Shown piece by piece: positions 33,379-49,780 of a stretch of DNA of 64,000 nucleotides. Both the position numbers and the translations under genes were made by a program. Below the pieces are notes generated by a model. It saw only the letters and a list, made by a program, of their open reading frames with translations, was not told the DNA's origin and searched no databases. The stretch lies in IMG/VR virus record IMGVR_UViG_3300033804_000036; one strand, written 5' to 3'. The DNA comes from a virus (Duplodnaviria; Heunggongvirae; Uroviricota; Caudoviricetes). The first letter of the stretch is position 1. Each line of letters opens with the position of its first letter.

Positions 33379-33555
33379 ATGAAGAAACACGTCAAAATAT
33401 TTTACTCCAATCTTGAATCAACCGTAGAACCACTCGAGGAAAAAATCAATGCTTTTCTTGAAGATAAGCCATGGTTTGACATTCTGCCGCCCGTGATGGT
33501 CGGCTGCGCAATGTTTGTCATGGTCATTTATGAGGAGGCTTCGAAGGATGAGTGA
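33379..33555 (+). CDS. Small membrane protein, 58 aa
   Basis: aggagg RBS. Hydrophobic C-terminal helix. Overlaps the E1-like gene start. Confidence 0.35.
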   Translation: MKKHVKIFYSNLESTVEPLEEKINAFLEDKPWFDILPPVMVGCAMFVMVIYEEASKDE

Positions 33556-34255
33556 GAGACAGTTTTTGCATGAGGAACTGTACCGTGGAAAAAACTATGG
33601 TAAACTCAAGGATAAGGTTGTTGTGATGGCCGGATGTGGAGCGATAGGCAGTTGGACTGCCACGTTTCTGGCAAGAATGGGCGTTGCAAACTTTCGGCTG
33701 ATCGACAAAGACCGGATAGAAGACCATAACGTTTCTACGCAGACGTTTCTGCCTGCCAACGTAGGCCAATACAAAACCCGTGCTTTACAGGAACAGCTTT
33801 ATAGGATCAGCAAAGCCAGATGCGAACTGCAACCAGTAGAACTGACAACCCAGAATCTTTCTCTCCTACACAAATGTGATCTGGTCATTTGCACCTTCGA
33901 CAACTCTGCATCACGCCAACTTGTTAAGTCAGCAGCCTTAAGCGAAAAAATAACGCCGTTAACAAAGGTACAAGGACACGACGGCCATGGAAGTTTCATC
34001 GGAGTAATTCAACGTATGTTTCCATGCGTCTTTGCAGGCATGAATGGACAGGAAGCCTACTTCGAAGTTGTGTGGGCTGAAAGCTACAAAGTTCCCAAAG
34101 ACCCAGAACAGGCTGAACTGGACCCATGCGCCTATCCGCTGAGCACGCCGCTTGTCACATCAGTAGCCGCAGCAACCGCCGAAATCGCAGTCCAATACCT
34201 GCTGACAAACCAGAAACTCACATGCAGACAAACACTAAACCAAACAATCTCCTAA
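33548..34255 (+). CDS. E1-like enzyme, ThiF/MoeB/UBA family
   Basis: VVMAGCGAIGSWTATFLARMGVANFRLIDKDRIEDHNVSTQ (Rossmann GxGxxG followed by the DxD region). Confidence 0.7.
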   Translation: MSERQFLHEELYRGKNYGKLKDKVVVMAGCGAIGSWTATFLARMGVANFRLIDKDRIEDHNVSTQTFLPANVGQYKTRALQEQLYRISKARCELQPVELTTQNLSLLHKCDLVICTFDNSASRQLVKSAALSEKITPLTKVQGHDGHGSFIGVIQRMFPCVFAGMNGQEAYFEVVWAESYKVPKDPEQAELDPCAYPLSTPLVTSVAAATAEIAVQYLLTNQKLTCRQTLNQTIS

Positions 34256-34307
34256 CCTTTTTTTCCTGGGTGAACAATCTCCTAACCTTTTTTTCTTGGG
34301 TGAAATT
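34256..34307 (+). repeat. Tandem duplication of the intergenic motif (2 x ~26 nt)
   Basis: caatctcctaacctttttttcctgggtgaa followed by caatctcctaacctttttttcttgggtgaa. Confidence 0.7.
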
Positions 34308-34928
34308 GTGCCTAAAATAACGAAACGCTCCTACAGAATTAACAAGAAAGACATCGAGTTCACTATTGCTTACAGTCTTAAAGATCAAGAATTCTACATT
34401 ACACTGCCTGATTGGATGGCAGGTCTTTTACAAACTGAAAGACTTGGCGCTAAGACACAATGGGATGTTGAACAAGCCTTAGAACAAGCCGTTAAAAAAT
34501 ACGGCAACCTGACGAAACTAGAGGAAAAAGTCATCTTCTACACTTTCAAGTCTATGATTAGAGAGCTAAACTTTGAAGATGACAACGCAGCGCAGGGGCT
34601 GGATGAAATGTGCAGTGAAGGCGTGGCACTTGATTTGTGGTTCAGAGTAGGCTATGTCGTCAGAGACCCAACGGAAAATAGAGAAATATATCTCACTGAA
34701 GAACACAAATGCCCGCGAGGGGCAGGGGTTTTCGCCGCACTTGAATATCAATGGTGCCATTACATGACGTACACTCCAGAACGTGAACAATTTTTCCTAG
34801 CATTTCGAGAATGGCTGATCACTGGCATAGTAAAAATGGGCAATTTCTTTAAGGAAACCGAATTGCCAGTCTTAATGGATGAATTGGTACGCAACCGCAA
34901 AGCTTTACCGTTCAAAGATTCTACATAA
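34308..34928 (+). CDS. Hypothetical protein, ~206 aa
   Basis: GTG start after the duplicated motif. Confidence 0.45.
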   Translation: MPKITKRSYRINKKDIEFTIAYSLKDQEFYITLPDWMAGLLQTERLGAKTQWDVEQALEQAVKKYGNLTKLEEKVIFYTFKSMIRELNFEDDNAAQGLDEMCSEGVALDLWFRVGYVVRDPTENREIYLTEEHKCPRGAGVFAALEYQWCHYMTYTPEREQFFLAFREWLITGIVKMGNFFKETELPVLMDELVRNRKALPFKDST

Positions 34929-34948
34929 TTTTTCTGTTGGGTGAAAAA

Positions 34949-35671
34949 ATGTCTGAATATCCAAAGATTGAAACATTGTTTGACCGCGACCCGAAAACGG
35001 TCAAGGTTGACGAAAGCAAAATTCGACTGCCAGAGTTTCTAATGGTAAGCAAATGGTACGTCACAGAGAAAATTGACGGAACAAACGTACGGACTGATTT
35101 CAAAACCAAATGGGAACCAACTGGAAAGTTTCTAAGTCCAAACCAGCCTGTTGTTCAAAATGCTGGTCGCGTGGTAGAAGTTGCGGGCAGAACTGAAAAT
35201 GCGCAGATGCCGCCGTTTCTCTATCGGTTTCTGTCCGACACTTTCACTCTGGAAAAATTGCAGCAAACATTTCCAGATCTTGAACCTCATATCACCGTAA
35301 CAATTTACGGCGAAGGTTACGGACCAAAAATTCAAAGCGGAGGTAACTATCGCAAAGACATTGCGTGTAGACTTTTTGACGTGAAAGTTGGTTCGTGGTG
35401 GCTTGAACCTGACAACATCGACAGTGTAGCTCGGAAGCTGGGCATTCAAACTGTTCCGTTGATTTCGGAAGCCATGACCATTGAAGACGCAGTCGCATTC
35501 GTCAAGAATAAACCGCAATCCAAAGTTTCAATGCAGGAATATGAAGGCATATGCAAAGACGGAAAATATCCATCAATAGAAGGCATAGTAGCAAGGACTA
35601 CACCGCTATTGTTGCGACGCAACGGCGAAAGACTAATGTGGAAACTGAAATGTAAAGACTTCAAACTCTAA
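34949..35671 (+). CDS. ATP-dependent RNA-ligase-like nucleotidyltransferase (Rnl family)
   Basis: Motif I KIDGTNV, motif IV-like EGIVAR, motif V WKLK. Confidence 0.62.
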   Translation: MSEYPKIETLFDRDPKTVKVDESKIRLPEFLMVSKWYVTEKIDGTNVRTDFKTKWEPTGKFLSPNQPVVQNAGRVVEVAGRTENAQMPPFLYRFLSDTFTLEKLQQTFPDLEPHITVTIYGEGYGPKIQSGGNYRKDIACRLFDVKVGSWWLEPDNIDSVARKLGIQTVPLISEAMTIEDAVAFVKNKPQSKVSMQEYEGICKDGKYPSIEGIVARTTPLLLRRNGERLMWKLKCKDFKL

Positions 35672-35752
35672 CTTTTTCTATGGGTGATAAGATGAGTGTT
35701 GTAAATCTTGGGGAAACAGTGGGAGTGGCTGAGACAGTTCTACGTGGACATG

Positions 35753-36133
35753 CTTCAAACTGTTGAGAGATCTCAGATGGACAGTAGAGAACGAGGCTTT
35801 TTCATAGTGCAGAACGAAGGCAGGTTTCCAGTCCGCACGAAAGTCCAAGTTGGCAACGGCGGCCAGGTTGTTCTCAGAATGAAGAGTTTAGAACCGTTTC
35901 TAACGGTGGAAAGCAGGTTGATGAGCTTCCACACGCACTGTTTTGGAAGCGGTGCACCAAGCAGGACCGATGGAGATACAGCCATCGCTCTTGGAGAAGA
36001 ATACACGGTCATAGGCTACCCAGCGATAAACAGAAAAGCAACAACGGTGCTAAGTCTACCCCGTATCGTAGTGTGGCAAATCACGAGTAAACAGGGCAGG
36101 TTCTTTAATGCAAAACGAATCTTCAAATTCTGA
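35753..36133 (+). CDS. Hypothetical protein
   Basis: ORF in a different frame from the short motif-initiated peptide at 35691. The start is uncertain. Confidence 0.3.
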   Translation, partial: LQTVERSQMDSRERGFFIVQNEGRFPVRTKVQVGNGGQVVLRMKSLEPFLTVESRLMSFHTHCFGSGAPSRTDGDTAIALGEEYTVIGYPAINRKATTVLSLPRIVVWQITSKQGRFFNAKRIFKF

Positions 36134-36335
36134 CAGGTCCCGTCTAATCCTGGAAGCGTTGGAGCGTAAACCTCTTTCAGGCAAAGAGGTACAGGCAGCC
36201 ACCAGTCTCCCTCTTCCCACTGTTTACCGGTATCTGGGTGAACTGCAAAAAATCAGGTTCATCATCAAAGACAAAGGAACCTACGCGTTGACAGACCGTG
36301 GAAGACAACTGTTGGAAGTGCTAGAAAAAGAGTGA
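36108..36335 (+). CDS. Winged-helix DNA-binding protein
   Basis: LILEALERKPLSGKEVQAATSLPLPTVYRYLGELQK. Confidence 0.45.
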   Translation: MQNESSNSDRSRLILEALERKPLSGKEVQAATSLPLPTVYRYLGELQKIRFIIKDKGTYALTDRGRQLLEVLEKE

Positions 36336-36795
36336 AAGGTCAGGAACAGGCATCTGCTGATCCAAAACTCGCTGTTTCTGCCAAGCCCTGTAAAGAGTAA
36401 GCCGCATGTTAGCGTCCTTCAACATTTCAAACAGCCGCGTCCTATCCTTCTTCAATCCTTCACCATATTCCTTCGACAACCCGAGACGCGTCTCAAAAAG
36501 TTTCACTGTGTCCAACAGACACGTTTCAGTTACCGTTTTCGGCTTGTCTAATATCCATCACCAACAAACAAAGGGAAAAGAGAGGTAAGTTTGAGTATGC
36601 GTAAAGTGGGAGTGCGTTCAGTTCAACATTTTGGCAATTGAATTTGTACGCACGTCCCGAGGACGCATCGACATCTTATAGGTGGAGGTTCCTTATATAA
36701 TTTTCCCTTTTTTCTCAATTAATGAGAATCCAGGCAAACTGTTATATATGTGAACAACAGATGTGAAGGGTGATGCGTCAAAAACGAGGGCGTAC

Positions 36796-36872
36796 AGACA
36801 ATTAGCTCAACCTGGTTGAGCATTGGCCTATAGAGCCGAAGAATGAGGGTTCAAATCCCCCATTGTCTACCA
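36796..36872 (+). tRNA. tRNA with an AUA anticodon (Tyr-like) and CCA encoded. The only + strand tRNA
   Basis: Acceptor AGACAAT/ATTGTCT, D-arm GCTC-aacctggtt-GAGC, anticodon arm TTGGC-CTATAGA-GCCGA, T-arm GAGGG-TTCAAAT-CCCCC, then A-CCA. Confidence 0.55.
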
Positions 36873-36921
36873 AAAAACACGCTCTCGTTACTCACGCATA
36901 ACATTAACAAGGGTGAAAAAT

Positions 36922-37113
36922 ATGGCGAGATTGAAAATTGTTCAGGGCGCTGACAAGACAGACGTGGAAGTTCCCGAGGACATGTTGCACGCAAGCGATG
37001 AACAGGTTATAAGCTACATTCACGAGACTCTCCACAGAGAACTGGCTGAAAACACTGTTATCGAAAGAACTTCCGAAGCTATAATCTGCCATCCGTCAGC
37101 AGTCTACGGATAG
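36922..37113 (+). CDS. Hypothetical protein, 63 aa
   Basis: gggtgaaaaatATG. Confidence 0.4.
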   Translation: MARLKIVQGADKTDVEVPEDMLHASDEQVISYIHETLHRELAENTVIERTSEAIICHPSAVYG

Positions 37114-37149
37114 AAAGCCTTATAACCGTTTCTTTTTCTGTATATAGCT

Positions 37150-37629
37150 ATGAATTGGGGATATGTGGCAGGCTTCTTTGATGGAGAAGGTTGTTTAACT
37201 TTCTCATATGAAAGTAAGCAAGTAGCTCCAAGAATTGAAATATCAAACTGTAACTCGGATACATTAGAAGCACAAAGAACTTTTACAGGTAACTTAGGTC
37301 ACATAAACCCGTATAAGCCGCGACGTAGACATAGTGGCTTACTCCCGAAATACACAAAGAATACCCGACCGATTTGGCGATGGGACATTGCTCATCGCGA
37401 CGACGTACAAACTTTCCTTGAAAACATAAAATCCTTTCTTATCATTAAGAAAGATTTGGCTGAGCTAGCACTCGTAATAATCGCAAATAATGACTACTCC
37501 AAATGTTCACATAAACTTCACAGAGTTGACCAGAAGAAATTCGACGCAAATATTGGAAAGAGGAGAAGACCTGCAAGGAACTTGGTAAAGAGTATAAAGT
37601 GCATCCAATGGCGATTCAAAAATTCATGA
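37150..37629 (+). CDS. LAGLIDADG homing endonuclease, single motif
   Basis: MNWGYVAGFFDGEGCL. A tatatag TATA-like element lies upstream, where the GGGTGAA motif is absent. Confidence 0.65.
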   Translation: MNWGYVAGFFDGEGCLTFSYESKQVAPRIEISNCNSDTLEAQRTFTGNLGHINPYKPRRRHSGLLPKYTKNTRPIWRWDIAHRDDVQTFLENIKSFLIIKKDLAELALVIIANNDYSKCSHKLHRVDQKKFDANIGKRRRPARNLVKSIKCIQWRFKNS

Positions 37630-37704
37630 TTAGGTACAATATCCCGAGGCGCAAAGCTGCCAAATTTAAGCGGCAACTTCCTCTTTTTTCTGTTGGGTGA
37701 AATT

Positions 37705-44504: not shown

Positions 44505-44735
44505 ATGAGCAACTGCATAGGCCACCTGTACGAATATTATTCTCATTTCACCCTCAACCAAAACGATTTGTCAATCATGCGTAAATGGGTAACATGCACC
44601 TGCTACTGCCCACGCTGCAACGTCCACCACAACTGTTTCAGGCCAGAATACTGGATAGAATCAGACTCAAAAAACAACCCGCCATGGTGCTGTAAAAAAA
44701 GAGAATCTCCCCGGCAGGAATCGAACCTGCACTGA
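44505..44735 (+). CDS. Cys-rich protein, 76 aa (doubtful)
   Basis: First ATG 40 nt after the last motif copy. Its 3' end overlaps a tRNA-like fragment. Confidence 0.25.
   Translation: MSNCIGHLYEYYSHFTLNQNDLSIMRKWVTCTCYCPRCNVHHNCFRPEYWIESDSKNNPPWCCKKRESPRQESNLH
44708..44735 (-). other. Orphan tRNA 3' fragment (T-arm + acceptor 3' strand)
   Basis: tccccgg-GCAGG-aatcgaa-CCTGC. No matching 5' acceptor strand was found nearby. Confidence 0.4.
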
Positions 44736-44769
44736 AGGAAAATCGCTGGCTAAGAAAAGAGGAAATGAG

Positions 44770-44841
44770 TCCTCTCACATGGATTCGCACCATGACTTCT
44801 TGGTTTACGGCCAAGTGTGCTAACTACTACACTATGAGAGG
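44770..44841 (-). tRNA. tRNA-Tyr(GTA)
   Basis: Hand fold: acceptor cctctca/tgagagg, T-arm catgg-attcgca-ccatg, anticodon arm cttgg-tttacgg-ccaag (RC loop CCGTAAA). Confidence 0.55.
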
Positions 44842-45224
44842 CTGATTTCGTATTTCAGTCCAAATTTATTCTCGATATAATGTGCGGCATTGCAAACATG
44901 ACACAGCACGTTAAACTCGTTTTTTCGTTGTTCTCGAAGAATACTTCTAAGTAATTGCCAATATCCGTGTGTTTTCTGATCTTTATGTCCTCCGAGGTTA
45001 AGGTGATTGATTTCCAACACGGCGAAGACGGTACATCCACATCTTGCGCATTTTGCTCCGCCGAGGTATTCAAGCACCTTTAACTTCAAATTTTGTTTGG
45101 CTCGGCTGTCTATGATGTGTTGTTTTTCAGGATTTTTCTGTCTCCATTTTTTCACGTAGTCACGATTGAACTCTCTCATATAGGTTCGTCGTTTGTCCTT
45201 GTCTTTGTATCTATCGTGTGGCAT
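44832..45224 (-). CDS. HNH endonuclease
   Basis: CARCGC ... EINHLNLGGH ... CHVCN. Paralog of 48099-48470 and 48850-49263. Its 3' end overlaps the 5' end of tRNA-Tyr. Confidence 0.65.
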   Translation of the reverse strand: MPHDRYKDKDKRRTYMREFNRDYVKKWRQKNPEKQHIIDSRAKQNLKLKVLEYLGGAKCARCGCTVFAVLEINHLNLGGHKDQKTHGYWQLLRSILREQRKNEFNVLCHVCNAAHYIENKFGLKYEISLS

Positions 45225-45258
45225 AACAGATTAATAATATCTGTTATGCTATATACCC

Positions 45259-45828
45259 TTATGCTACGGGGAGTCCTACAACCGAAGTTATGATCCAGAT
45301 CTTGTCAGAAGTTGCCAGTGGCGATGGCACAGTGTACGTTTTAATCCAGAAAGTCACAGTGTAGTCGTCATAGTCGAATTTGCAGCCTGTTTTTTCTTCT
45401 TCGTTCATCTTGACAAAGACATCGTAGAATCGTCTTTGAAGTTCAGGATCGTCTTTAGACGTGACACGCAAAGTTTTGCCAGACGCCAAATGCAGCACAT
45501 TCTTCGCGCAGTTGCGAATGAACCCGTCAATCTTGTCCTTGTTCTTCGCCCGTATCCAACCGCTTTTGAACACTCGACGAACCTGAAGTCGCTTGTCAAC
45601 TTTTGCGAGCAGAAGGCTGATTTCCCCTTCAGCGTTGAACCTTGCAGAAACCAATGTAGGCCGCTGGAACTGTCCTCTACTCTCCTTAACAGGATACATA
45701 GGCGTCACTTCTTCAATGTAAACACCGAACCCGCCAAACAAGTATCTCAGATATTTGGCGTTGTCACTGTACACTAGAAACTTCGTCACCTCCTTGGGCA
45801 AATCCAAACCTTTCGAACTCACTTTCAT
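45259..45828 (-). CDS. Hypothetical protein, 189 aa, in the tRNA array
   Basis: Perfect GGAGGTGA SD before the ATG. Lies between tRNA-Pro and the HNH gene. Possibly a nuclease. Confidence 0.5.
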   Translation of the reverse strand: MKVSSKGLDLPKEVTKFLVYSDNAKYLRYLFGGFGVYIEEVTPMYPVKESRGQFQRPTLVSARFNAEGEISLLLAKVDKRLQVRRVFKSGWIRAKNKDKIDGFIRNCAKNVLHLASGKTLRVTSKDDPELQRRFYDVFVKMNEEEKTGCKFDYDDYTVTFWIKTYTVPSPLATSDKIWIITSVVGLPVA

Positions 45829-45845
45829 TCACCTCCGTATATTAT

Positions 45846-45938
45846 ACCTATGAATGGGGAATAAGGGATTTGAACCCTTGACCACGACGTTTCTTGAGAT
45901 TATCTTCCCAAGCGTCGGATGCTTAGTCCAAGCTACAC
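45846..45938 (-). tRNA. tRNA-Pro(TGG) with a ~16-nt intron
   Basis: Acceptor ggggaat/attcccc, T-arm aaggg-atttgaa-ccctt, anticodon stem CGACG/CGTCG enclosing loop CTTGGG plus intron. Confidence 0.55.
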
Positions 45939-45993
45939 CAATTCCCCACAGATTTTATTATTTTGTGATTTTATTATTTTCTGATTTTATTAT

Positions 45994-46105
45994 TGGCGGA
46001 GCAGCCGGGATTTGAACCCGGGCCGTACGATTACTGCAGACGGAAGTTTGCAACTATTTCTTCCGTCTTAGACAGTCGCACATCCTACCGCTGGACCACT
46101 GCTCC
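45994..46105 (-). tRNA. tRNA-Asp(GTC) with a ~38-nt intron, CCA encoded
   Basis: Acceptor ggagcag/ctgctcc + G + CCA. D-arm GTCC-agcggta-GGAT. Anticodon stem TGCGA/TCGTA. Intron hairpin GACGGAAG ... CTTCCGTC. Confidence 0.6.
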
Positions 46106-46162
46106 CTCGAGCGCGGTTTTCATGTTGTTTTTCCATCTTTTGAATTCCCTCGAGCGCAGAGA

Positions 46163-46234
46163 GGGCCGAGGGCGGGAGTCGAACCCGCATCCCAGGATTC
46201 ACAGACCTGTATCCTACCGTTAGCCTACCTCGGC
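46163..46234 (-). tRNA. tRNA-His(GTG) with G-1 encoded
   Basis: Acceptor GCCGAGG plus an extra 5' G pairing the discriminator C. Loop CTGTGAA. Confidence 0.65.
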
Positions 46235-46342
46235 CACTGTGTATGCCTTGCTGAACCAAGTCAGCTAGGGCTTCGGTCCCAATGGAGTTTTACGCTAGCT
46301 TATCCTAAGCCTTCCTTAATGGTTCTGGCATTTAGGCCACAG

Positions 46343-46415
46343 TGGAGAGGATGGGAATTGAACCCATGATAACGGCCTCTTCAGGACCGCGCCTTCCCTC
46401 TTGGCGACCTCTCCG
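46343..46415 (-). tRNA. tRNA-Phe(GAA)
   Basis: Acceptor ggagagg/cctctcc. Anticodon arm CGGTC-CTGAAGA-GGCCG. Confidence 0.6.
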
Positions 46416-46417
46416 AG

Positions 46418-46490
46418 CGCCGCCCGATGGAGTCGAACCATCACCTTCTGGCTCAACAGGCCAGCGCACTACCATTTATGCTAAGGCGGC
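46418..46490 (-). tRNA. tRNA-Asn(GTT)
   Basis: T-arm gatgg-agtcgaa-ccatc. Anticodon arm ctggc-tcaacag-gccag (RC loop CTGTTGA). Confidence 0.6.
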
Positions 46491-46494
46491 ATAG

Positions 46495-46568
46495 TAGGCG
46501 AGGGGCGACTCGAACGCCCACTACCGACTTATAAGGACGGCGTGCACAGCCACGTACACTACTCGCCC
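46495..46568 (-). tRNA. tRNA, anticodon unresolved (possibly TAT)
   Basis: Clear T-arm gggcg-actcgaa-cgccc and a 7-bp acceptor. The anticodon arm has a mismatch. Confidence 0.4.
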
Positions 46569-46592
46569 ACTTGTGGTGCGTTACGCACCGAG

Positions 46593-46663
46593 TGCACTCG
46601 GCGGGAATTGAACCCGCGTCTCCGCCATGGCAAGGCGACATCTTACCACTGGACCACGAGTGC
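46593..46663 (-). tRNA. tRNA-Gly(GCC)
   Basis: Perfect acceptor gcactcg/cgagtgc. Loop RC TTGCCAT. Confidence 0.55.
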
Positions 46664-46667
46664 TTGG

Positions 46668-46783
46668 GGCCGGTGGAGAGATTTGAACTCTCATCTTGCT
46701 GCTTACTCGGCAGGTACATGCTTACGATCTGCGTAAGGCGCTGCTTACAATGCAGGCGCTCTAACCATTGAAGCTACACCGGC
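46668..46783 (-). tRNA. tRNA-Thr(TGT) with a ~42-nt intron
   Basis: Acceptor gccggtg/caccggc, T-arm gagag-atttgaa-ctctc. Loop ATTGTAA. Internal hairpins. Confidence 0.5.
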
Positions 46784-46787
46784 ACAG

Positions 46788-46861
46788 TGGGGATACTTGG
46801 ATTTGAACCAAGATCAACGGTTCTGGAGACCGCCATGCTAATCCGTTGGCACCATATCCCC
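46788..46861 (-). tRNA. tRNA-Trp(CCA)
   Basis: Acceptor ggggata/tatcccc. Anticodon stem cggt/accg. Loop RC CTCCAGA. Confidence 0.55.
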
Positions 46862-46890
46862 TTTTGCCTCAGAGATTCATCACAGGCGGA

Positions 46891-47038
46891 TAGGCGCGGA
46901 AGGAGTTGAACCTTCGTTAATTGCTTTCTTGGTTCCATGCTGGGGTGTCATCCCTCTTACCACGCCACGTCTACGTTTCCGACTAGCGACCAACACGAAA
47001 CTTGTAAGGCAAATGTCCTACCGTTAGACCACGCGCCT
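46891..47038 (-). tRNA. tRNA-Val(TAC) with a ~77-nt intron
   Basis: Acceptor aggcgcg/cgcgcct, T-arm gaagg-agttgaa-ccttc. Loop CTTACA plus intron. Confidence 0.45.
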
Positions 47039-47045
47039 GCTATGG

Positions 47046-47320
47046 TAGCCCCGGAGAGAATCGAACTCTCGTCATCGGCTTTCTCCAGCGTTATCGGAAG
47101 AGGCTGACACCAGCACGGTTTCTGCGCACCGTACCGCACGCTCCCCAGTACCGACACTTCCTGGGACTTAGGTTAGGCACATACCTCCTTTGCCGACGCA
47201 TCCAAAGGCTTATGCCCTCGTTAAGACACACCTCTTAGTCGCCCACAGAGGATTCTGGTACTACCAGAGCGTCAAAGTCTTTCAGAGGCCGACATCCTTT
47301 TCCAGTTGGACTACGGGGCT
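47046..47320 (-). tRNA. tRNA-Gln(CTG) with a ~200-nt intron
   Basis: 3' half 47047-47079: acceptor agccccg, T-arm gagag-aatcgaa-ctctc, stem TCGGC. 5' half 47281-47320: cggggct acceptor, D-arm GTCC/GGAT, stem GCCGA, loop CTCTGA. Confidence 0.5.
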
Positions 47321-47459
47321 GCGAAACTAGACGCGCTCAACCTCAGGGAACTAACAACGTGCCATAAGGCAAAGGCTCTTTTTGTAGCCACGTTCTGTTG
47401 CCCTGCTTGTACTGGCTACCATCGGATATGTCATCTAGTTTTCTTCAGGCGCGTCGGAG

Positions 47460-47530
47460 TGCAGGATCCGCGAGTTGAACGCGGGTCTTAGCCTTGGAGG
47501 GGCCACGTCCTACCACTAGACTAATCCTGC
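47460..47530 (-). tRNA. tRNA, anticodon uncertain (loop CCUCCAA; Gly-TCC with C33?)
   Basis: Perfect acceptor gcaggat/atcctgc, T-arm ccgcg-agttgaa-cgcgg. Confidence 0.45.
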
Positions 47531-47548
47531 AAGTAGACTGCCTGCAAG

Positions 47549-47620
47549 TAGGCGTGGTCGGGGTTGAACCGACACATACAGCTTATCAGACTGTTGTGCA
47601 GACCAGCTACACCACACGCC
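47549..47620 (-). tRNA. tRNA-Ile(GAT)
   Basis: T-arm gtcgg-ggttgaa-ccgac. Anticodon arm acagc-ttatcag-actgt (RC loop CTGATAA). Confidence 0.55.
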
Positions 47621-47624
47621 CATA

Positions 47625-47771
47625 TACAGAGGAGAGGATTTGAACCTCCGTTCTCAAGGTTTCTCGCATCTCAATCGGCTAGGGATGCACGGCTAGTTCC
47701 TAGCAACCATCTAACGTGCTTCCATGAGATGTTATGAGCCTTGCGGGATAGCCTGACTACCCTACCTCTGT
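47625..47771 (-). tRNA. tRNA-Met(CAT) with a ~72-nt intron and an A1:U72 acceptor
   Basis: Acceptor acagagg/cctctgt. Anticodon stem caagg/ccttg. Loop CTCATAA. Confidence 0.5.
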
Positions 47772-47783
47772 TCGTTATTTTGG

Positions 47784-47929
47784 CGCTGGGTAGCGGATTT
47801 GGACCGCTGGTACCTTTTTGGGGTACATCAGATTTCTGCGGCCTCCATTCGAGTTACGCCCTTGTGAAGCGTTCAAGTCTCGTCTTGCCCATAGCAATCT
47901 GACGCATTAAGCCGCTCTGCCAACCCAGC
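47784..47929 (-). tRNA. tRNA-Ser(GCT), type II, with a ~58-nt intron
   Basis: Acceptor gctgggt/acccagc. Variable-arm hairpin GTACC-ccaaaaa-GGTAC. Anticodon stem TCAGA/TCTGA. Loop TTGCTA. Confidence 0.5.
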
Positions 47930-47947
47930 ACTTATATTTTTTGGTCA

Positions 47948-48108
47948 TAGTGGGGGTGGGATTCGAACCCACGCGTTGGCCCCTACGGGAAGAGGTTTCT
48001 CACAGGCTGAACAGTCGTTCTTAGCCGTCCTTAGCATCGAGCCTACGACTTGAGCTTCGAGCTTTAGTCTTAAGCCTCTCGCTTTCAGCCATGCTTAGCT
48101 ACCCCACT
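47948..48108 (-). tRNA. tRNA-Leu(TAA), type II, with a ~72-nt intron
   Basis: Acceptor agtgggg/ccccact. Variable arm TCCCGTAGGGG. Anticodon stem AGAGG/CCTCT. Loop CTTAAGA. Confidence 0.5.
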
Positions 48109-48470
48109 ACATTGTCTGGCAACCATTTTATGTCCCAATGATCTTCAATACCTCTTAACCTTGTCAAACAATGCCACGCATTGCATACTCTACAGGTTAG
48201 TTCCAGTTCATCTTTGTTTTGTTTTCCGTTCAGTATCGCAAAGTAGAATGCTCTTCGTGTCTGCCACTTCTTCCTTTTATGTCCGCCTCCGTTCTTATGG
48301 TTAATTTCCAAAGCTTCGGATATATCGCAACCACAATACACGCATTTTCCTCCAAGGAAAGCAAGCACGCGTTTTCTGAGCATCCGTCCATATTCGGCTC
48401 TTTGTAGTCTTCTTTTTCTTTGCCATTCTTTTTGATAGACTCTGTTTACTTCTCTATCAGCGTATGGCAT
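48099..48470 (-). CDS. HNH endonuclease
   Basis: CVYCGC ... EINHKNGGGH ... CRVCN. Overlaps the 5' end of tRNA-Leu. Confidence 0.65.
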   Translation of the reverse strand: MPYADREVNRVYQKEWQRKRRLQRAEYGRMLRKRVLAFLGGKCVYCGCDISEALEINHKNGGGHKRKKWQTRRAFYFAILNGKQNKDELELTCRVCNAWHCLTRLRGIEDHWDIKWLPDNVVG

Positions 48471-48520
48471 GAAAGAGGATATGGGTTCGACGGTATTAAG
48501 GTTATTGTTGAACCTTGTGG

Positions 48521-48642
48521 CGGATCCGGCGGGATTTGAACCCGCGAGTGGGAGCTATCCCTGCCCATTGTTTAAGGGGATCAGGCTTAAAGGGTTCAGG
48601 CTTCGCTGTCTCCTGCCTTAGACCTTACTGGGCGACGGATCC
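48521..48642 (-). tRNA. tRNA, intron-containing, anticodon unresolved
   Basis: Perfect acceptor ggatccg/cggatcc, T-arm gcggg-atttgaa-cccgc. Middle contains repeated GGGGATCAGGCTT / GGGTTCAGGCTT. Confidence 0.4.
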
Positions 48643-48650
48643 ATGTTTGG

Positions 48651-48816
48651 CGGGTGCGGAGAGATTTGAACTCTCGATCTGGAGGTTTCTCCAGTTCCTA
48701 ACTTTCGTAGCGTCAGGCTATTTCGGGTAATATCAACCTATCGAAGCATCAGGCTCTCAGAAGCTTCAGGTTTCTTTAGGAACCTCCTGCCTTCTTCCGA
48801 GCTAGGCGACGCACCC
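48651..48816 (-). tRNA. tRNA-Arg(CCT) with a ~90-nt intron
   Basis: Acceptor gggtgcg/cgcaccc. D-arm GCCT/AGGC. Anticodon stem GGAGG/CCTCC. Loop TTCCTAA. Confidence 0.5.
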
Positions 48817-48820
48817 TTGG

Positions 48821-49407
48821 TGGTCCCTCCGGGATTCGGACCCGGCTCGTTAGGTATGAAGTCTGATGTTTCGATATATCGTGGTCCAATTCCACTTCAG
48901 GTACTTCATGCAGAAGTGAACTCCGATGTGACACCAGTAGCATAGACGAACCCATTCGTCTGGTTCTAACAGTGCACGACGGAGTTCCGCTAAGGAATAA
49001 CTATGCTTTTTTCCATCTTTTCTATGGAGACTTAGTCTGTATTTACTGTTATCGCAGAGGATACACTTAGTTCCCCATACGATATCTCTCTGTTTCTTTA
49101 ATGTCTCCTTATACTGTCGTGTGCATTCGTTATTTGCAATTCTACGCTCCTCGAGGTTCTGTTTTTCACGTTTAATAGTAGTTCGCGTTGGAAGACCAAG
49201 TTTTTTCCTCTTGTACCACTCTCGTTGGTAGGTTCGTTTTGTTTCTCTATCTTTGAAAGGCATGAACTACTTATGGTTTTGAACCCTTATTAGTCTTTCG
49301 AACCCATCAGATGTCTTCCGTTCTGGATGAAAGCATCGTCCTCTCGTTGAGAGCCTAACATCCTTAGACGGCAAATTGTGCCTTTGTCCAGAATAGACTA
49401 AGGGACC
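48821..49407 (-). tRNA. tRNA-Glu(CTC) split by a ~490-nt intron enclosing an HNH gene. A second short insertion near the D-arm is possible
   Basis: 3' part 48822-48854: acceptor ggtccct, T-arm ccggg-attcgga-cccgg, stem ttagg. 5' part 49347-49407: stem cctaa, loop CTCTCAA, acceptor agggacc. Confidence 0.45.
48850..49263 (-). CDS. HNH endonuclease inside the putative tRNA-Glu intron
   Basis: CILCDN ... SLHRKDGKKH ... CYWCH. Same strand as the tRNA. Confidence 0.6.
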   Translation of the reverse strand: MPFKDRETKRTYQREWYKRKKLGLPTRTTIKREKQNLEERRIANNECTRQYKETLKKQRDIVWGTKCILCDNSKYRLSLHRKDGKKHSYSLAELRRALLEPDEWVRLCYWCHIGVHFCMKYLKWNWTTIYRNIRLHT

Positions 49408-49411
49408 GAGA

Positions 49412-49484
49412 GCGAGGTGCACGATTTGAACGTGCGAATATCGGTGTTGCGGACCGACGTGTTAACCATACTTCACCAACCCCG
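49412..49484 (-). tRNA. tRNA-Cys(GCA)? (loop CCGCAAC has C33)
   Basis: T-arm gcacg-atttgaa-cgtgc. Anticodon stem tcggt/accga. Confidence 0.45.
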
Positions 49485-49492
49485 CTTGAATT

Positions 49493-49586
49493 GTGGTGGA
49501 AGCTGGCGGATTCGAACCGCCGATCTTCTGCTGTTTTGGGATTGTTGTCCTTGCAAAGCAGTTGCTCTACCTCTGAGCTAAGCCCC
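49493..49586 (-). tRNA. tRNA-Ala(TGC) with a ~19-nt intron, CCA encoded, G3:U70
   Basis: RC reads GGGGGCT-TA-GCTCagaggtaGAGC-A-ACTGC-TTTGCA[intron]A-GCAGA ... GGCGG-TTCGAAT-CCGCC-AGCTTCC-A-CCA. Confidence 0.6.
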
Positions 49587-49780
49587 CATTAAAAACGGAT
49601 GCAAGGGAAATTCAACGTGGACTTAACCGCTTTTACTGGGCGGCTGACGCTTCAGAGTCTTGTGTTTTATGCTGTGGTCTACTCAGGCGGTTTAATCCGC
49701 CCTCCTTACATGAGAAGACTATAGACCCTTGCATGAAACACATTTTCAGTCCACTTAGCTTCAAGAGTGGCAGTTTCATG

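Follow-up and report, generated by a model that had tools for sequence, protein, structure and literature searches.

The usual explanation for viral tRNAs is codon supply, and a more recent one is escape from defences that cleave tRNAs; under both, it is the anticodon that is conserved. Phage tRNAs that evade nucleases, or replace the tRNAs that nucleases target, have been described (PMC10264068, PMC11555353). In the published cases of evasion, the anticodon is kept and flanking positions of the loop are changed. Anticodon shifts through remolding or recruitment of tRNA genes were reportedly described by Saks et al. in 1998, and there are mitochondrial and eukaryotic cases. A tRNA fold may also serve as a processing signal, as at the 5′ end of Haloferax 5S rRNA, where tRNase Z acts, in MALAT1 mascRNA and in mitochondrial tRNA punctuation. 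Free-standing homing endonuclease genes occur in phage tRNA regions, for example T4 segB and the genes of the T5 F-Tfl enzymes. To our knowledge, linkage of a ubiquitin-like (Ubl) protein to a tRNA gene has not previously been described. Adenosine is encoded at position 34 in wobble tRNAs that are substrates of TadA or ADAT2/3; such I34 tRNAs decode Arg codons and, among eukaryotes, those of the TAPSLIVR boxes, and are not known from the split Tyr/stop box. Archaea are reported to have no A34 tRNA genes, from which I34 arises, and A34 that is left unmodified prefers U as its partner (PMC8072771, PMC11066159); I34 accepts U, C or A (PMC8072771).

Here we describe a tRNA gene with the anticodon AUA in a virus-derived stretch of DNA of 64,000 nucleotides (IMG/VR record IMGVR_UViG_3300033804_000036; the whole stretch is referred to as the window). 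In this gene and its relatives, a strongly constrained tRNA is least conserved at its anticodon, and the gene is tied to a ubiquitin-like gene in an RNA-repair cluster.

Results

ARAGORN identified a 77-nt tRNA with the anticodon ATA at exactly 36796–36872 on the plus strand, and Infernal aligned positions 36796–36869 to the Rfam tRNA family RF00005 with a score of 59.7 bits (E = 2e-10; the gathering score is 29). In the RF00005 alignment, A, U and A occupy positions 34–36 of the loop CUAUAGA, which contains G37. The molecule is a class-I tRNA with the cloverleaf, 7-nt anticodon loop with U33 and T loop that define the family. Its acceptor stem AGACAAT/ATTGTCT forms 7 bp beginning with A1-U72, the D stem is GCTC/GAGC, the variable loop has 5 nt, the T loop is TTCAAAT, the discriminator is A73, and CCA is encoded; the T stem contains an A50·C64 mismatch. 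The Logan assembly L003, made independently, contains the identical tRNA (no mismatch in 19,186 nt), which rules out an assembly error as the source of A34. The initial annotation had read this gene as a textbook plus-strand cloverleaf with encoded CCA and the anticodon AUA, and had called A34 tRNAs rare; the two programs and the second assembly bear out the reading of the gene, and the rarity also holds. The gene at 36796–36872 is a real tRNA gene, and the large virus-like element that carries it has archaeal-type features; we have high confidence in the description of the gene, its unit and its orthologues as a whole.

Six related metagenomic lineages (L004, L011, L014, L016, L017 and L019) have the tRNA at the corresponding site, between the same leader and trailer, and their copies scored 42–58 bits on Rfam tRNA; six of the seven family members, including the window copy, scored 55–60 bits. 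The comparison thus comprises only seven distinct tRNA sequences. Compensatory changes were found in all four stems across the seven lineages. C32 and U33 are invariant, the T loop is kept, and G37 and A38 are mostly kept. In contrast to this constant framework, no unpaired stretch varies more than columns 34–36 (3, 4 and 3 states), and the variability of the anticodon equals that of the variable loop. The anticodon is AUA in the window, GUA in L004 and the identical L012, GAA in L011, CUG in L014 and the identical L015, ACU in L016 and CAA in L019, and L017 has an 8-nt loop (CUGGAAGA). A34 therefore occurs in two of the seven versions, and the AUA of the window is one substitution from the GUA of L004.

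The copies of the window and L011 share the anticodon stem TTGGC/GCCGA with different anticodons, and those of L016 and L017 share CAAAC/GTTTG with different anticodon loops. The end of the leader, GGGCGTAC, is invariant in all orthologues, and the trailer, A1 and the T loop are common to them. These shared elements, together with the identical stems around different anticodons, indicate homology rather than independent insertion. The family's most canonical copy is that of the window, with A1-U72 and ACCA encoded at its end; A1 and A72 are mismatched (A1·A72) in five lineages, and CCA is encoded in three. The 50:64 mismatch of the T stem is present in the window and L004 copies, and L017, with its 8-nt loop and acceptor mismatches, looks partly degenerate. 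In an eighth lineage, L013, most of the tRNA has been lost and only its ends survive, but the trailer and the downstream 63-amino-acid (aa) gene are kept. Thus, the tRNA is dispensable. The identity between the window and L014 is mosaic (94% in an upstream hairpin versus 68% in the tRNA).

Because the cloverleaf is kept but the anticodon differs in almost every lineage, an ordinary tyrosine tRNA or a stop-codon suppressor is unlikely. Further, the CAA (Leu) and ACU (Ser) anticodons stand on a body with a short variable loop, which SerRS is not expected to charge. Archaeal LeuRS is likewise not expected to charge such a body (PMC9976931). It follows that not every orthologue can be an ordinary replacement decoder.

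The tRNA family pattern and the family of the 63-aa protein had no match in the 185,579 species genomes of GTDB. Exact-pattern searches with the tRNA or the leader returned nothing from IMG/VR or the GTDB genomes, nor did protein-guided searches of IMG/VR and genomes with the 63-aa protein and the LAGLIDADG protein described below, and no DNA or protein match was found in GenBank phages. A scan of JGI metagenomes returned only a duplicate of L004. The RNA-ligase relatives L005–L010 are non-syntenic and have no tRNA at the corresponding site.

The tRNA is flanked by a 5′ leader (36770–36795, plus strand) and a 3′ trailer (36873–36899, plus strand). Positions 36773–36778 and 36783–36793 of the leader pair with positions 36879–36889 and 36894–36899 of the trailer, forming a helix of 11 bp and 6 bp split by a 4 × 4 internal loop. 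The minimum free energy fold of 36768–36905 had a z-score of −4.84, and RNAalifold detected compensatory pairs at columns 231:372 (UA in five sequences and CG in two), 243:362 and 244:361. A bulge-helix-bulge (BHB), by which the tRNA would be excised like an intron, has two 3-nt bulges on opposite strands with a 4-bp helix between them; this possibility was rejected on the geometry of the stem. A T-box-like leader that senses tRNA was also rejected, as any alignment column matched the cognate codon in at most two of the seven sequences.

A TATA-like box (TTATATAT, 36742–36749, plus strand) lies approximately 25 nt before the leader helix begins and is kept in relatives as TTATATAT, TTAAATAT or TATAAATA (alignment A5). 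No sigma-70-like promoter was found in the region, and the box is a putative archaeal promoter. Between this and another TATA-like box is a perfect palindrome (TTCTCAATTAATGAGAA, 36712–36728), whose arms TTCTCA/TGAGAA are kept in relatives (columns 167–183 of A5). The palindrome is a putative operator, possibly for the winged-helix protein encoded upstream, and the unit of leader, tRNA, trailer and 63-aa gene would be transcribed from the TATA-box promoter under this operator. Further upstream, a conserved hairpin of approximately 72 nt (36597–36668, plus strand; z = −2.98) shows compensatory changes at columns 61:110 (GC in four sequences, and CG, UA and AU in one each), 62:109 and 63:108. 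Its G·U pairs fit the plus strand, and it matched no Rfam family. Long-range pairing of this element with the trailer was dropped, as a local hairpin and a separate leader-trailer helix fit the data.

Directly downstream of the tRNA in every case is an open reading frame of 63 aa (ORF63; 36922–37113, plus strand), preceded by the Shine-Dalgarno sequence GGGTGAA at 36911–36917. The product is a candidate beta-grasp protein of the MoaD/ThiS/ubiquitin-like type with an invariant C-terminal Tyr-Gly. The leader, the tRNA, the trailer that pairs with the leader and the Ubl-like gene form a conserved two-gene unit in which the tRNA comes first. Directly upstream of this module, and also in L016 and L017, is a gene for a winged-helix regulator of 75 aa (HVO_A0261_N/HTH_45; 36108–36335, plus strand; Pfam E = 5e-10). 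The unit is set among genes for an E1-like enzyme, a JAB-like protein, an RNA ligase, an RlaP nucleotidyltransferase, DUF4326 and NAMPT. The ThiF/E1-like adenylating enzyme (33515–34255, plus strand; Pfam E = 1e-27; PADLOC E1-E2 models E = 3e-19) is conserved in L004, L011 and L017, and the ATP-dependent RNA ligase (PF09414) is encoded at 34937–35671 on the plus strand. The RNA ligase, RlaP, DUF4326 and NAMPT classes have been linked to viral RNA repair and to NAD/ADPr counter-defence (PMC9503650). A protein of 141 aa (35708–36133, plus strand) contains the JAMM/MPN+ motif HxHx7SxxD (HTHCFGSGAPSRTD) and is a weak candidate for a JAB isopeptidase: the Prok-JAB profile matched the motif region with an E value of only 0.28, a PDB profile search was empty, and the AF2 model was poor (pLDDT 53).

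An insertion of approximately 520 bp (37129–37652, plus strand) follows ORF63. It contains an ORF at 37150–37629, starting MNWGYVAGFFDGEGC, for a single-motif LAGLIDADG homing endonuclease (motif GYVAGFFDGEGC at residues 4–15), which matched PHROG 5046 with E = 1.5e-14 and Pfam LAGLIDADG_3 with 21.7 bits, just below the cut-off of 22.5. In the syntenic relative L004, the insertion is absent and no endonuclease gene lies between ORF63 and the next gene; no gene of this type was called beside ORF63 in the other relatives that were fetched. The motif and this presence/absence polymorphism mark it as a LAGLIDADG homing-endonuclease gene. It starts 280 bp downstream of the tRNA, and the insertion lies downstream of ORF63 rather than adjoining the tRNA. 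The LAGLIDADG gene near the tRNA had been recognized correctly in the initial annotation, and its suggestion of a mobile insertion holds for this gene but not for the tRNA, which occupies the same site in six relatives that lack the endonuclease. An island of 36.3–37.65 kb free of the GGGTGAA motif had also been proposed, but the motif is present there, as the ribosome-binding site of ORF63. At the right edge of the insertion, a short stretch (VHPMAI, about 37601–37620) may, on weak evidence, be a remnant of the 3′ end of ORF63. HNH-like ORFs are scattered through the minus-strand tRNA cluster of the window.

The element encodes several archaeal-type features, namely a BHB tRNA intron, a class-I tRNA-Tyr with C1-G72, PCNA and the HVO_A0261-type winged-helix protein, and its gene content thus suggests that the host is probably archaeal. 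The true BHB is in another tRNA of the window (45994–46105, minus strand). The tRNA-Tyr(GUA) with C1-G72 belongs to the cluster and has an odd loop, CCGUAAA (C33 and A37). Given an archaeal-looking host and the reported absence of A34 tRNAs from archaea, I34 and ochre suppression are unlikely. Further, a motif search detected the deaminase motif HAE...PCxxC in no frame of the window. Stop-codon usage, which had been proposed as a check on suppression, gave no sign of it: TAA made up 38 of the 68 stop codons, the largest share, and 85–91% of the window outside the tRNA cluster was covered by standard-code ORFs, a normal density. In an archaeal cell, A34 would remain unmodified, and the best match of the tRNA would be UAU (Tyr), the less used of the two Tyr codons in the element (162 versus 312).

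The Tyr identity of archaeal and eukaryal tRNAs depends on C1-G72 (PMC9976931, PMC5370408), and the archaeal set also includes A73, G34, U35 and A36 (PMC9976931). In the window tRNA, A73, U35 and A36 are present and there is no long variable arm, but C1-G72 is replaced by A1-U72 and G34 by A. The lack of C1-G72 and G34 makes charging with Tyr doubtful, and the earlier label "Tyr-like", which was based on the anticodon alone, is not upheld.

Discussion

From the gene context, we tentatively propose, at somewhat less than even confidence, that the gene encodes an accessory tRNA in a virus-host conflict over tRNAs. The tRNA would provide a spare or decoy anticodon arm, and point mutations would adjust its anticodon to the particular tRNA species that is depleted or cleaved by the host. 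In the virus of the window, the loop would be of the Tyr type, with A34 escaping enzymes that recognize G34-U35, and the nearby RNA-repair genes would serve the same purpose. The adjacent RNA ligase, RlaP, DUF4326 and NAMPT genes and the odd-looped second tRNA-Tyr favor this role, all of them as context. Like the T5 tRNA-Tyr that counters Retron-Eco7 PtuAB (PMC11555353) and the tRNAs of the anticodon-loop mutation hypothesis (PMC10264068), this is a viral tRNA that has a non-canonical anticodon loop and lies next to genes for RNA repair. However, in our family the anticodon changes and the positions that frame it are fixed, the reverse of the known cases; moreover, the host appears archaeal and charging is doubtful. 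Also at odds with a conflict role are the CAA and ACU orthologues on an unfit body, the A1·A72 pair in five lineages, the dispensability of the tRNA, the missing Tyr elements of the window copy and the small number of distinct sequences.

A close rival, which we regard as unlikely but substantial, is that the tRNA shape is a processing or stabilizing signal. RNase P and tRNase Z would excise the tRNA and thereby set the 5′ end of the ORF63 mRNA, the leader would stay paired to the trailer, and the anticodon, having no role, would drift. This reading accounts for the fixed place directly upstream of ORF63 in every lineage, the covarying leader-trailer helix, an anticodon no more constrained than the variable loop, the ACU and CAA triplets incompatible with the tRNA body, and A34 in two orthologues although cellular archaeal tRNAs avoid it. 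As in known tRNA-like processing elements, a tRNA fold directly precedes a gene in one predicted transcript and the anticodon is unconstrained. However, those elements differ from this family, in which a full canonical tRNA (55–60 bits) with a conserved U-turn framework stands in a long leader-trailer helix. A pure signal would not need C32, U33, G37 and A38, nor does it fit with the CCA encoded in three lineages, the trailer and ORF63 of L013 without an intact tRNA, or the absence of a BHB motif.

It is improbable that the gene is an ordinary codon-supplementing tRNA-Tyr that reads UAU by a Watson-Crick A34-U pair and that the host TyrRS charges in spite of A1-U72. The loop CUAUAGA does equal the archaeal tRNA-Tyr loop CUGUAGA (as in tRNA-Tyr of M. 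jannaschii) with G34 changed to A. The presence of A73, U35 and A36 of the archaeal Tyr set (PMC9976931), the canonical form of the window copy and the GUA of the syntenic L004 copy are also consistent with such a function. Nevertheless, C1-G72 and G34 are missing, whereas the cluster tRNA-Tyr of the same virus has C1-G72 and already supplies a GUA anticodon; UAU is the rarer Tyr codon of the element, and orthologues have changed to non-Tyr anticodons.

A constant body with an anticodon diversified between viruses could also be a purpose-built viral adaptor, a long shot that may take two forms. In the first, the tRNA may be used or charged through its acceptor end (A1·A72/A73) regardless of the anticodon, and each virus may redirect or jam one chosen sense codon, UAU in this case. 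In the second, the tRNA may work with the co-transcribed Ubl-like protein and the neighboring E1-like enzyme; for example, the E1 might move the C-terminal Gly of the Ubl onto the 3′ end of the tRNA, a chemistry like that of aminoacyl-tRNA synthetases, yielding a protein-tRNA conjugate. The locus resembles Ubl-E1-JAB and sulfur-carrier systems (MoaD/ThiS/TtuB with a ThiF-type E1; archaeal SAMP/UbaA) in its candidate beta-grasp protein ending in Gly and in the ThiF-like and JAMM-motif genes conserved near ORF63. It differs in that ORF63 ends in Tyr-Gly, not Gly-Gly, and in that no orthologous tRNA has U34, the usual target of thiolation; no E2 or thiolase partner for ORF63 was found. Either form, if true, would represent a new way for viruses to manipulate translation in archaeal hosts.

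Relaxed selection, with a pseudogene in the making and AUA as a neutral G34-to-A mutation of a former tRNA-Tyr, appears very doubtful. The loss of the tRNA in L013, the 8-nt loop and acceptor mismatches of L017 and the 50:64 mismatch of the window and L004 copies would fit such decay, but in the seven lineages compensatory changes preserve the pairing of all four stems, neither the T loop nor U33 varies, and six of seven copies retain 55–60 bits.

It is highly improbable that the tRNA, along with the LAGLIDADG gene, belongs to the cargo of a mobile island or marks an integration (att) site. The endonuclease gene is indeed an insertion 280 bp downstream, L013 retains only the ends of the tRNA, and the identity between the window and L014 is mosaic. 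However, the tRNA stands at the same site in the six relatives without the endonuclease gene, and the insertion lies beyond ORF63; in this respect, the arrangement also differs from T4 segB and the T5 F-Tfl genes, which it otherwise resembles as a homing-endonuclease ORF near a tRNA gene that is present or absent between syntenic genomes. The duplication expected of an attachment-site tRNA did not appear either: the 26 nt at the 3′ end of the tRNA had no second copy in the window even with up to three mismatches, flanking repeats were short and at chance level, no integrase was found among the Pfam-scanned neighbors, and the GTDB genomes gave no match. Least likely of all, and barely credible, is that A34 is deaminated to I34 so that the tRNA reads UAU, UAC and UAA as a Tyr-inserting ochre suppressor. 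The encoded A34, shared with TadA and ADAT2/3 substrates, and the ability of I34 to pair with U, C and A (PMC8072771) speak for it; against it are an archaeal setting in which A34 tRNA genes are reported absent (PMC8072771, PMC11066159), a window without a deaminase motif, TAA as the most used stop at normal coding density, and unrelated sense anticodons in the orthologues.

As in tRNA remolding, a homologous tRNA gene has here changed its decoding identity by point mutation of the anticodon. Known shifts are rare, however, whereas the seven orthologues contain six triplets and an 8-nt loop, with Leu and Ser triplets unfit for the body and A34 in two copies. If the pattern holds with more sequences, it would point to a job of the full tRNA that is independent of the anticodon, to a decoy or replacement tRNA that is rapidly retargeted in the conflict between archaeal viruses and their hosts, or to Ubl/E1 chemistry linked to tRNA.

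The tRNA gene

The tRNA gene at 36796-36872 (+) is 77 nt long and was assigned the anticodon ATA by ARAGORN. It scored 59.7 bits (E 2e-10) against the Rfam tRNA model, for which the gathering score is 29, and the loop CUAUAGA was aligned with A-U-A at positions 34-36. As read from the sequence (+ strand), the acceptor stem is AGACAAT/ATTGTCT, the D stem GCTC/GAGC, the anticodon stem TTGGC/GCCGA and the T stem GAGGG/CCCCC with an A50·C64 mismatch; the T loop is TTCAAAT, the discriminator is A and CCA is encoded. This bears out the initial annotation of a real cloverleaf tRNA with an AUA anticodon and an encoded CCA. L003, an independent Logan assembly, is identical to the window over 19,186 nt, and A34 is thus not an assembly error.

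The LAGLIDADG gene noticed near the tRNA is also real (37150-37629). The tRNA had been placed in an island lacking GGGTGAA, but this motif is present at 36911-36917, where it serves ORF63 (36922-37113, +) as Shine-Dalgarno sequence. ORF63, the next gene after the tRNA, encodes a predicted beta-grasp MoaD/ThiS/ubiquitin-like (Ubl) protein. GGGTGAA occurs at 52 sites in the window versus 7.7 expected, 48 of them on the + strand; it is a ribosome-binding motif a few bases 5' of start codons, complementary to the 3' end of 16S rRNA.

A conserved leader, tRNA, trailer and ORF63 module

Syntenic loci were fetched using the neighboring RNA ligase and then ORF63 as handles, which yielded seven other lineages. 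The tRNA occupied the same position, 45-90 nt 5' of ORF63, in six of the seven, and all six shared the invariant leader end GGGCGTAC and the common trailer CGCTCYYGYNACYCAYRCA. RNAalifold and single-sequence folding paired leader with trailer in the window (36783-36793 with 36879-36889, and 36773-36778 with 36894-36899; z -4.84), and compensatory changes were present in these pairs across relatives. The fold of this helix ruled out a bulge-helix-bulge (BHB) motif. A conserved TATA-like box (36742-36749) lies approximately 25 nt 5' of the leader helix, and a conserved perfect palindrome (36712-36728) lies 5' of the leader. Further, a hairpin of approximately 72 nt (36597-36668, +) 5' of the putative tRNA promoter was conserved in seven loci, with compensatory changes and + strand G·U pairs; it matched no Rfam family.

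Similarity within the module was mosaic. In the module alignment, the upstream hairpins of the window and its relative L014 were 94% identical and their tRNAs 68%, while the L014 tRNA was closest to that of L019 (85%), which suggests recombination within the module. In L014 (464-490), and likewise in L015, an additional small hairpin, UUCCCGCAAGGGAA, separates the CCA end of the tRNA from the trailer helix. The spacer between the winged-helix gene and the conserved hairpin (36336-36585) is a site of lineage-specific inserts: that of the window spans approximately 250 bp and holds a 64-aa ORF on the - strand (36321-36515) together with a terminator-like hairpin (36507-36523), that of L011 (7300-7480) holds a different small Cys-rich + strand ORF, and that of L004 has neither.

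The anticodon differs among orthologous tRNAs

The anticodon was AUA in the window (CUAUAGA), GUA in L004 and L012 (CUGUAAA), GAA in L011 (CUGAAGC), CUG in L014 and L015 (CUCUGGA), ACU in L016 (CUACUGA) and CAA in L019 (CUCAAGA); L017 has an 8-nt loop, CUGGAAGA. All seven intact copies scored as tRNA (42-58 bits). These copies are homologues, not independent insertions: leader, A1, D arm and T loop are common to them, their acceptors are of one sequence family, and identical anticodon stems carry different anticodons (TTGGC/GCCGA in the window and L011; CAAAC/GTTTG in L016 and L017).

Structural alignment of the seven copies revealed compensatory substitutions in every tRNA stem and invariant C32, U33 and T loop. 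Among unpaired stretches, columns 34-36 varied most (3, 4 and 3 states), and A34 occurred in two copies. At 1:72, five lineages had mismatched A·A, and A-U occurred only in the window. No triplet covarying with the anticodon was found elsewhere in the module. This purely comparative evidence, from seven metagenomic sequences, shows a structurally constrained tRNA within a conserved leader/tRNA/trailer/Ubl unit, the anticodon being unconstrained or diversifying.

In L013 the tRNA is reduced to its ends and the anticodon is lost. Its acceptor strands (AGACAAT...ATTGTCA) and trailer are kept (330-420), the D and anticodon arms are gone together with some of the T arm, and an upstream ORF extends into the remnant. 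ORF63 is kept beside it; the tRNA is therefore dispensable for ORF63 retention.

Probable archaeal setting and gene neighborhood

Coding is strongly one-sided across the window, which encodes a DNA ligase, a PCNA-like clamp, an AAA ATPase, NAMPT and RNA-repair genes. An array of approximately 20 tRNA genes (44700-49600, -) is interspersed with small Cys-rich HNH-like ORFs. Many of the tRNA genes contain introns, 16-201 nt long, some of them outside the canonical positions. One member (45994-46105, -) folds into a textbook BHB, in which two 3-nt bulges are separated by a 4-bp helix and flanked by helices. The array tRNA-Tyr(GUA) (44769-44841, -; 73 nt) is class I with C1-G72 and A73; its loop, CCGUAAA, is odd, with C33 replacing the near-universal U33, plus A37. 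Other members include a tRNA-Ile(UAU), a tRNA-Asn with G37 in place of the usual A37 (46417-46490, -) and a Gln(CUG)-like tRNA with A1-U72 and an insert of approximately 200 nt (47043-47320).

A relative encodes PCNA, the regulator adjoining the tRNA (36108-36335, +) belongs to the HVO_A0261 winged-helix family, and no sigma-70-like promoter was found near the tRNA, where a TATA-like box is conserved. Together with the BHB and tRNA introns and the C1-G72 tRNA-Tyr, these features point to an archaeal host. No relatives were found among GenBank phages, and those in IMG/VR were two distant records (L001 and L002) linked via RNA ligase.

ORF63, which would be transcribed together with the tRNA, encodes a strongly conserved protein of 63 aa, with 68-78% identity among close members. 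The family is tiny (11 proteins at 90% identity; 13 clusters at 50% identity, all of 61-66 aa) and almost always ends in Tyr-Gly, except for one homologue ending in YGDE and one in YGD. Conserved 5' of the module are genes for a ThiF/E1-like protein (33515-34255), an RNA ligase, the winged-helix regulator and p141 (141 aa; 35708-36133, +), which has an exact JAMM motif HxHx7SxxD (HTHCFGSGAPSRTD) and weak profile support. ThiF/E1-like protein, p141 and ORF63 form a candidate viral Ubl-E1-JAB triad (33515-37113). DUF4326, RlaP and NAMPT genes lie 3' of the module. A published account (PMC9503650) connects DUF4326 and NAMPT-type NAD+ metabolism with NAD/ADPr conflicts between virus and host, and it connects viral RNA ligases and nucleotidyltransferases with the repair of tRNAs cut by nucleases; RlaP, named here from its Pfam family, is not mentioned there.

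Possible roles of the tRNA

Transcription probably begins at the TATA box, with the palindrome serving as operator; RNase P and tRNase Z would then process the transcript, and A34 would stay unmodified. Our tentative best guess is an accessory tRNA in a conflict over tRNAs. Its anticodon arm would be a spare or a decoy that point mutations retune, and the loop offered by this virus would be of the Tyr type, A34 replacing G34. This reading fits the repair genes next to the module and the unusual loop of the array tRNA-Tyr.

The main rival, which we consider less probable, is a tRNA-shaped signal for processing or stabilizing the Ubl mRNA. Such a signal accounts for an anticodon that is free to vary and for the pairing of leader with trailer; it explains less well why C32/U33/G37/A38 are conserved and why CCA is encoded.

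An ordinary tRNA-Tyr reading UAU is doubtful. Archaeal Tyr identity comprises A73, C1-G72, G34, U35 and A36 (PMC9976931). The window tRNA lacks C1-G72 and G34, whereas the array tRNA-Tyr has both, and the earlier label "Tyr-like" was based on the anticodon alone. UAU is the minority Tyr codon in this element (162 vs 312). The CAA and ACU orthologues have a short-variable-loop body, and SerRS is expected to need a long variable arm. Archaeal LeuRS needs one too (PMC9976931), and thus these versions should not be charged according to their anticodons. A tRNA gene in decay, as the remnant in L013 might bring to mind, is more doubtful still for the seven intact copies with their compensated stems.

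An attachment site or island cargo, as initially proposed, is very improbable. The LAGLIDADG gene is missing in syntenic L004, where ORF63 runs directly into sequence equivalent to window 37653 onward; the endonuclease gene is therefore a separate insertion of approximately 520 bp 3' of ORF63, while the tRNA belongs to the module conserved in six relatives. No second copy of the tRNA 3' end was found in the window, flanking repeats were at chance level, no integrase was present among the scanned neighbor genes, and the tRNA-ORF63 module had no match in GTDB genomes. The right edge of the insertion (37598-37630) reads VHPMAI in another frame and resembles the ORF63 C-terminal VHPxA[IV]YG, with weak statistical support; it may be what is left, in degenerate form, of the original 3' end of ORF63, in which case ORF63 would be the homing target.

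Least probable of all is the suggested I34 ochre suppressor. According to reviews, archaea have no A34 tRNA genes, from which I34 derives, and A34 left unmodified prefers U, pairing modestly with C and only weakly with A or G (PMC8072771, PMC11066159). In the window, no recognizable deaminase motif is encoded and TAA is the commonest stop codon (38/68); outside the tRNA array, 85-91% of the sequence is covered by ORFs in the standard code.

Taken singly, tRNAs in viruses, anticodon shifts and homing endonucleases close to tRNA genes are already known, and we found no description in the literature of the features of the tRNA-ORF63 module combined. This combination comprises six triplets and one 8-nt loop across seven orthologues, A34 in two of the versions within a setting of archaeal type, the A1·A72 mismatch that recurs among lineages, covariation in the helix of leader and trailer, and a fixed linkage of the tRNA to a Ubl-like gene.
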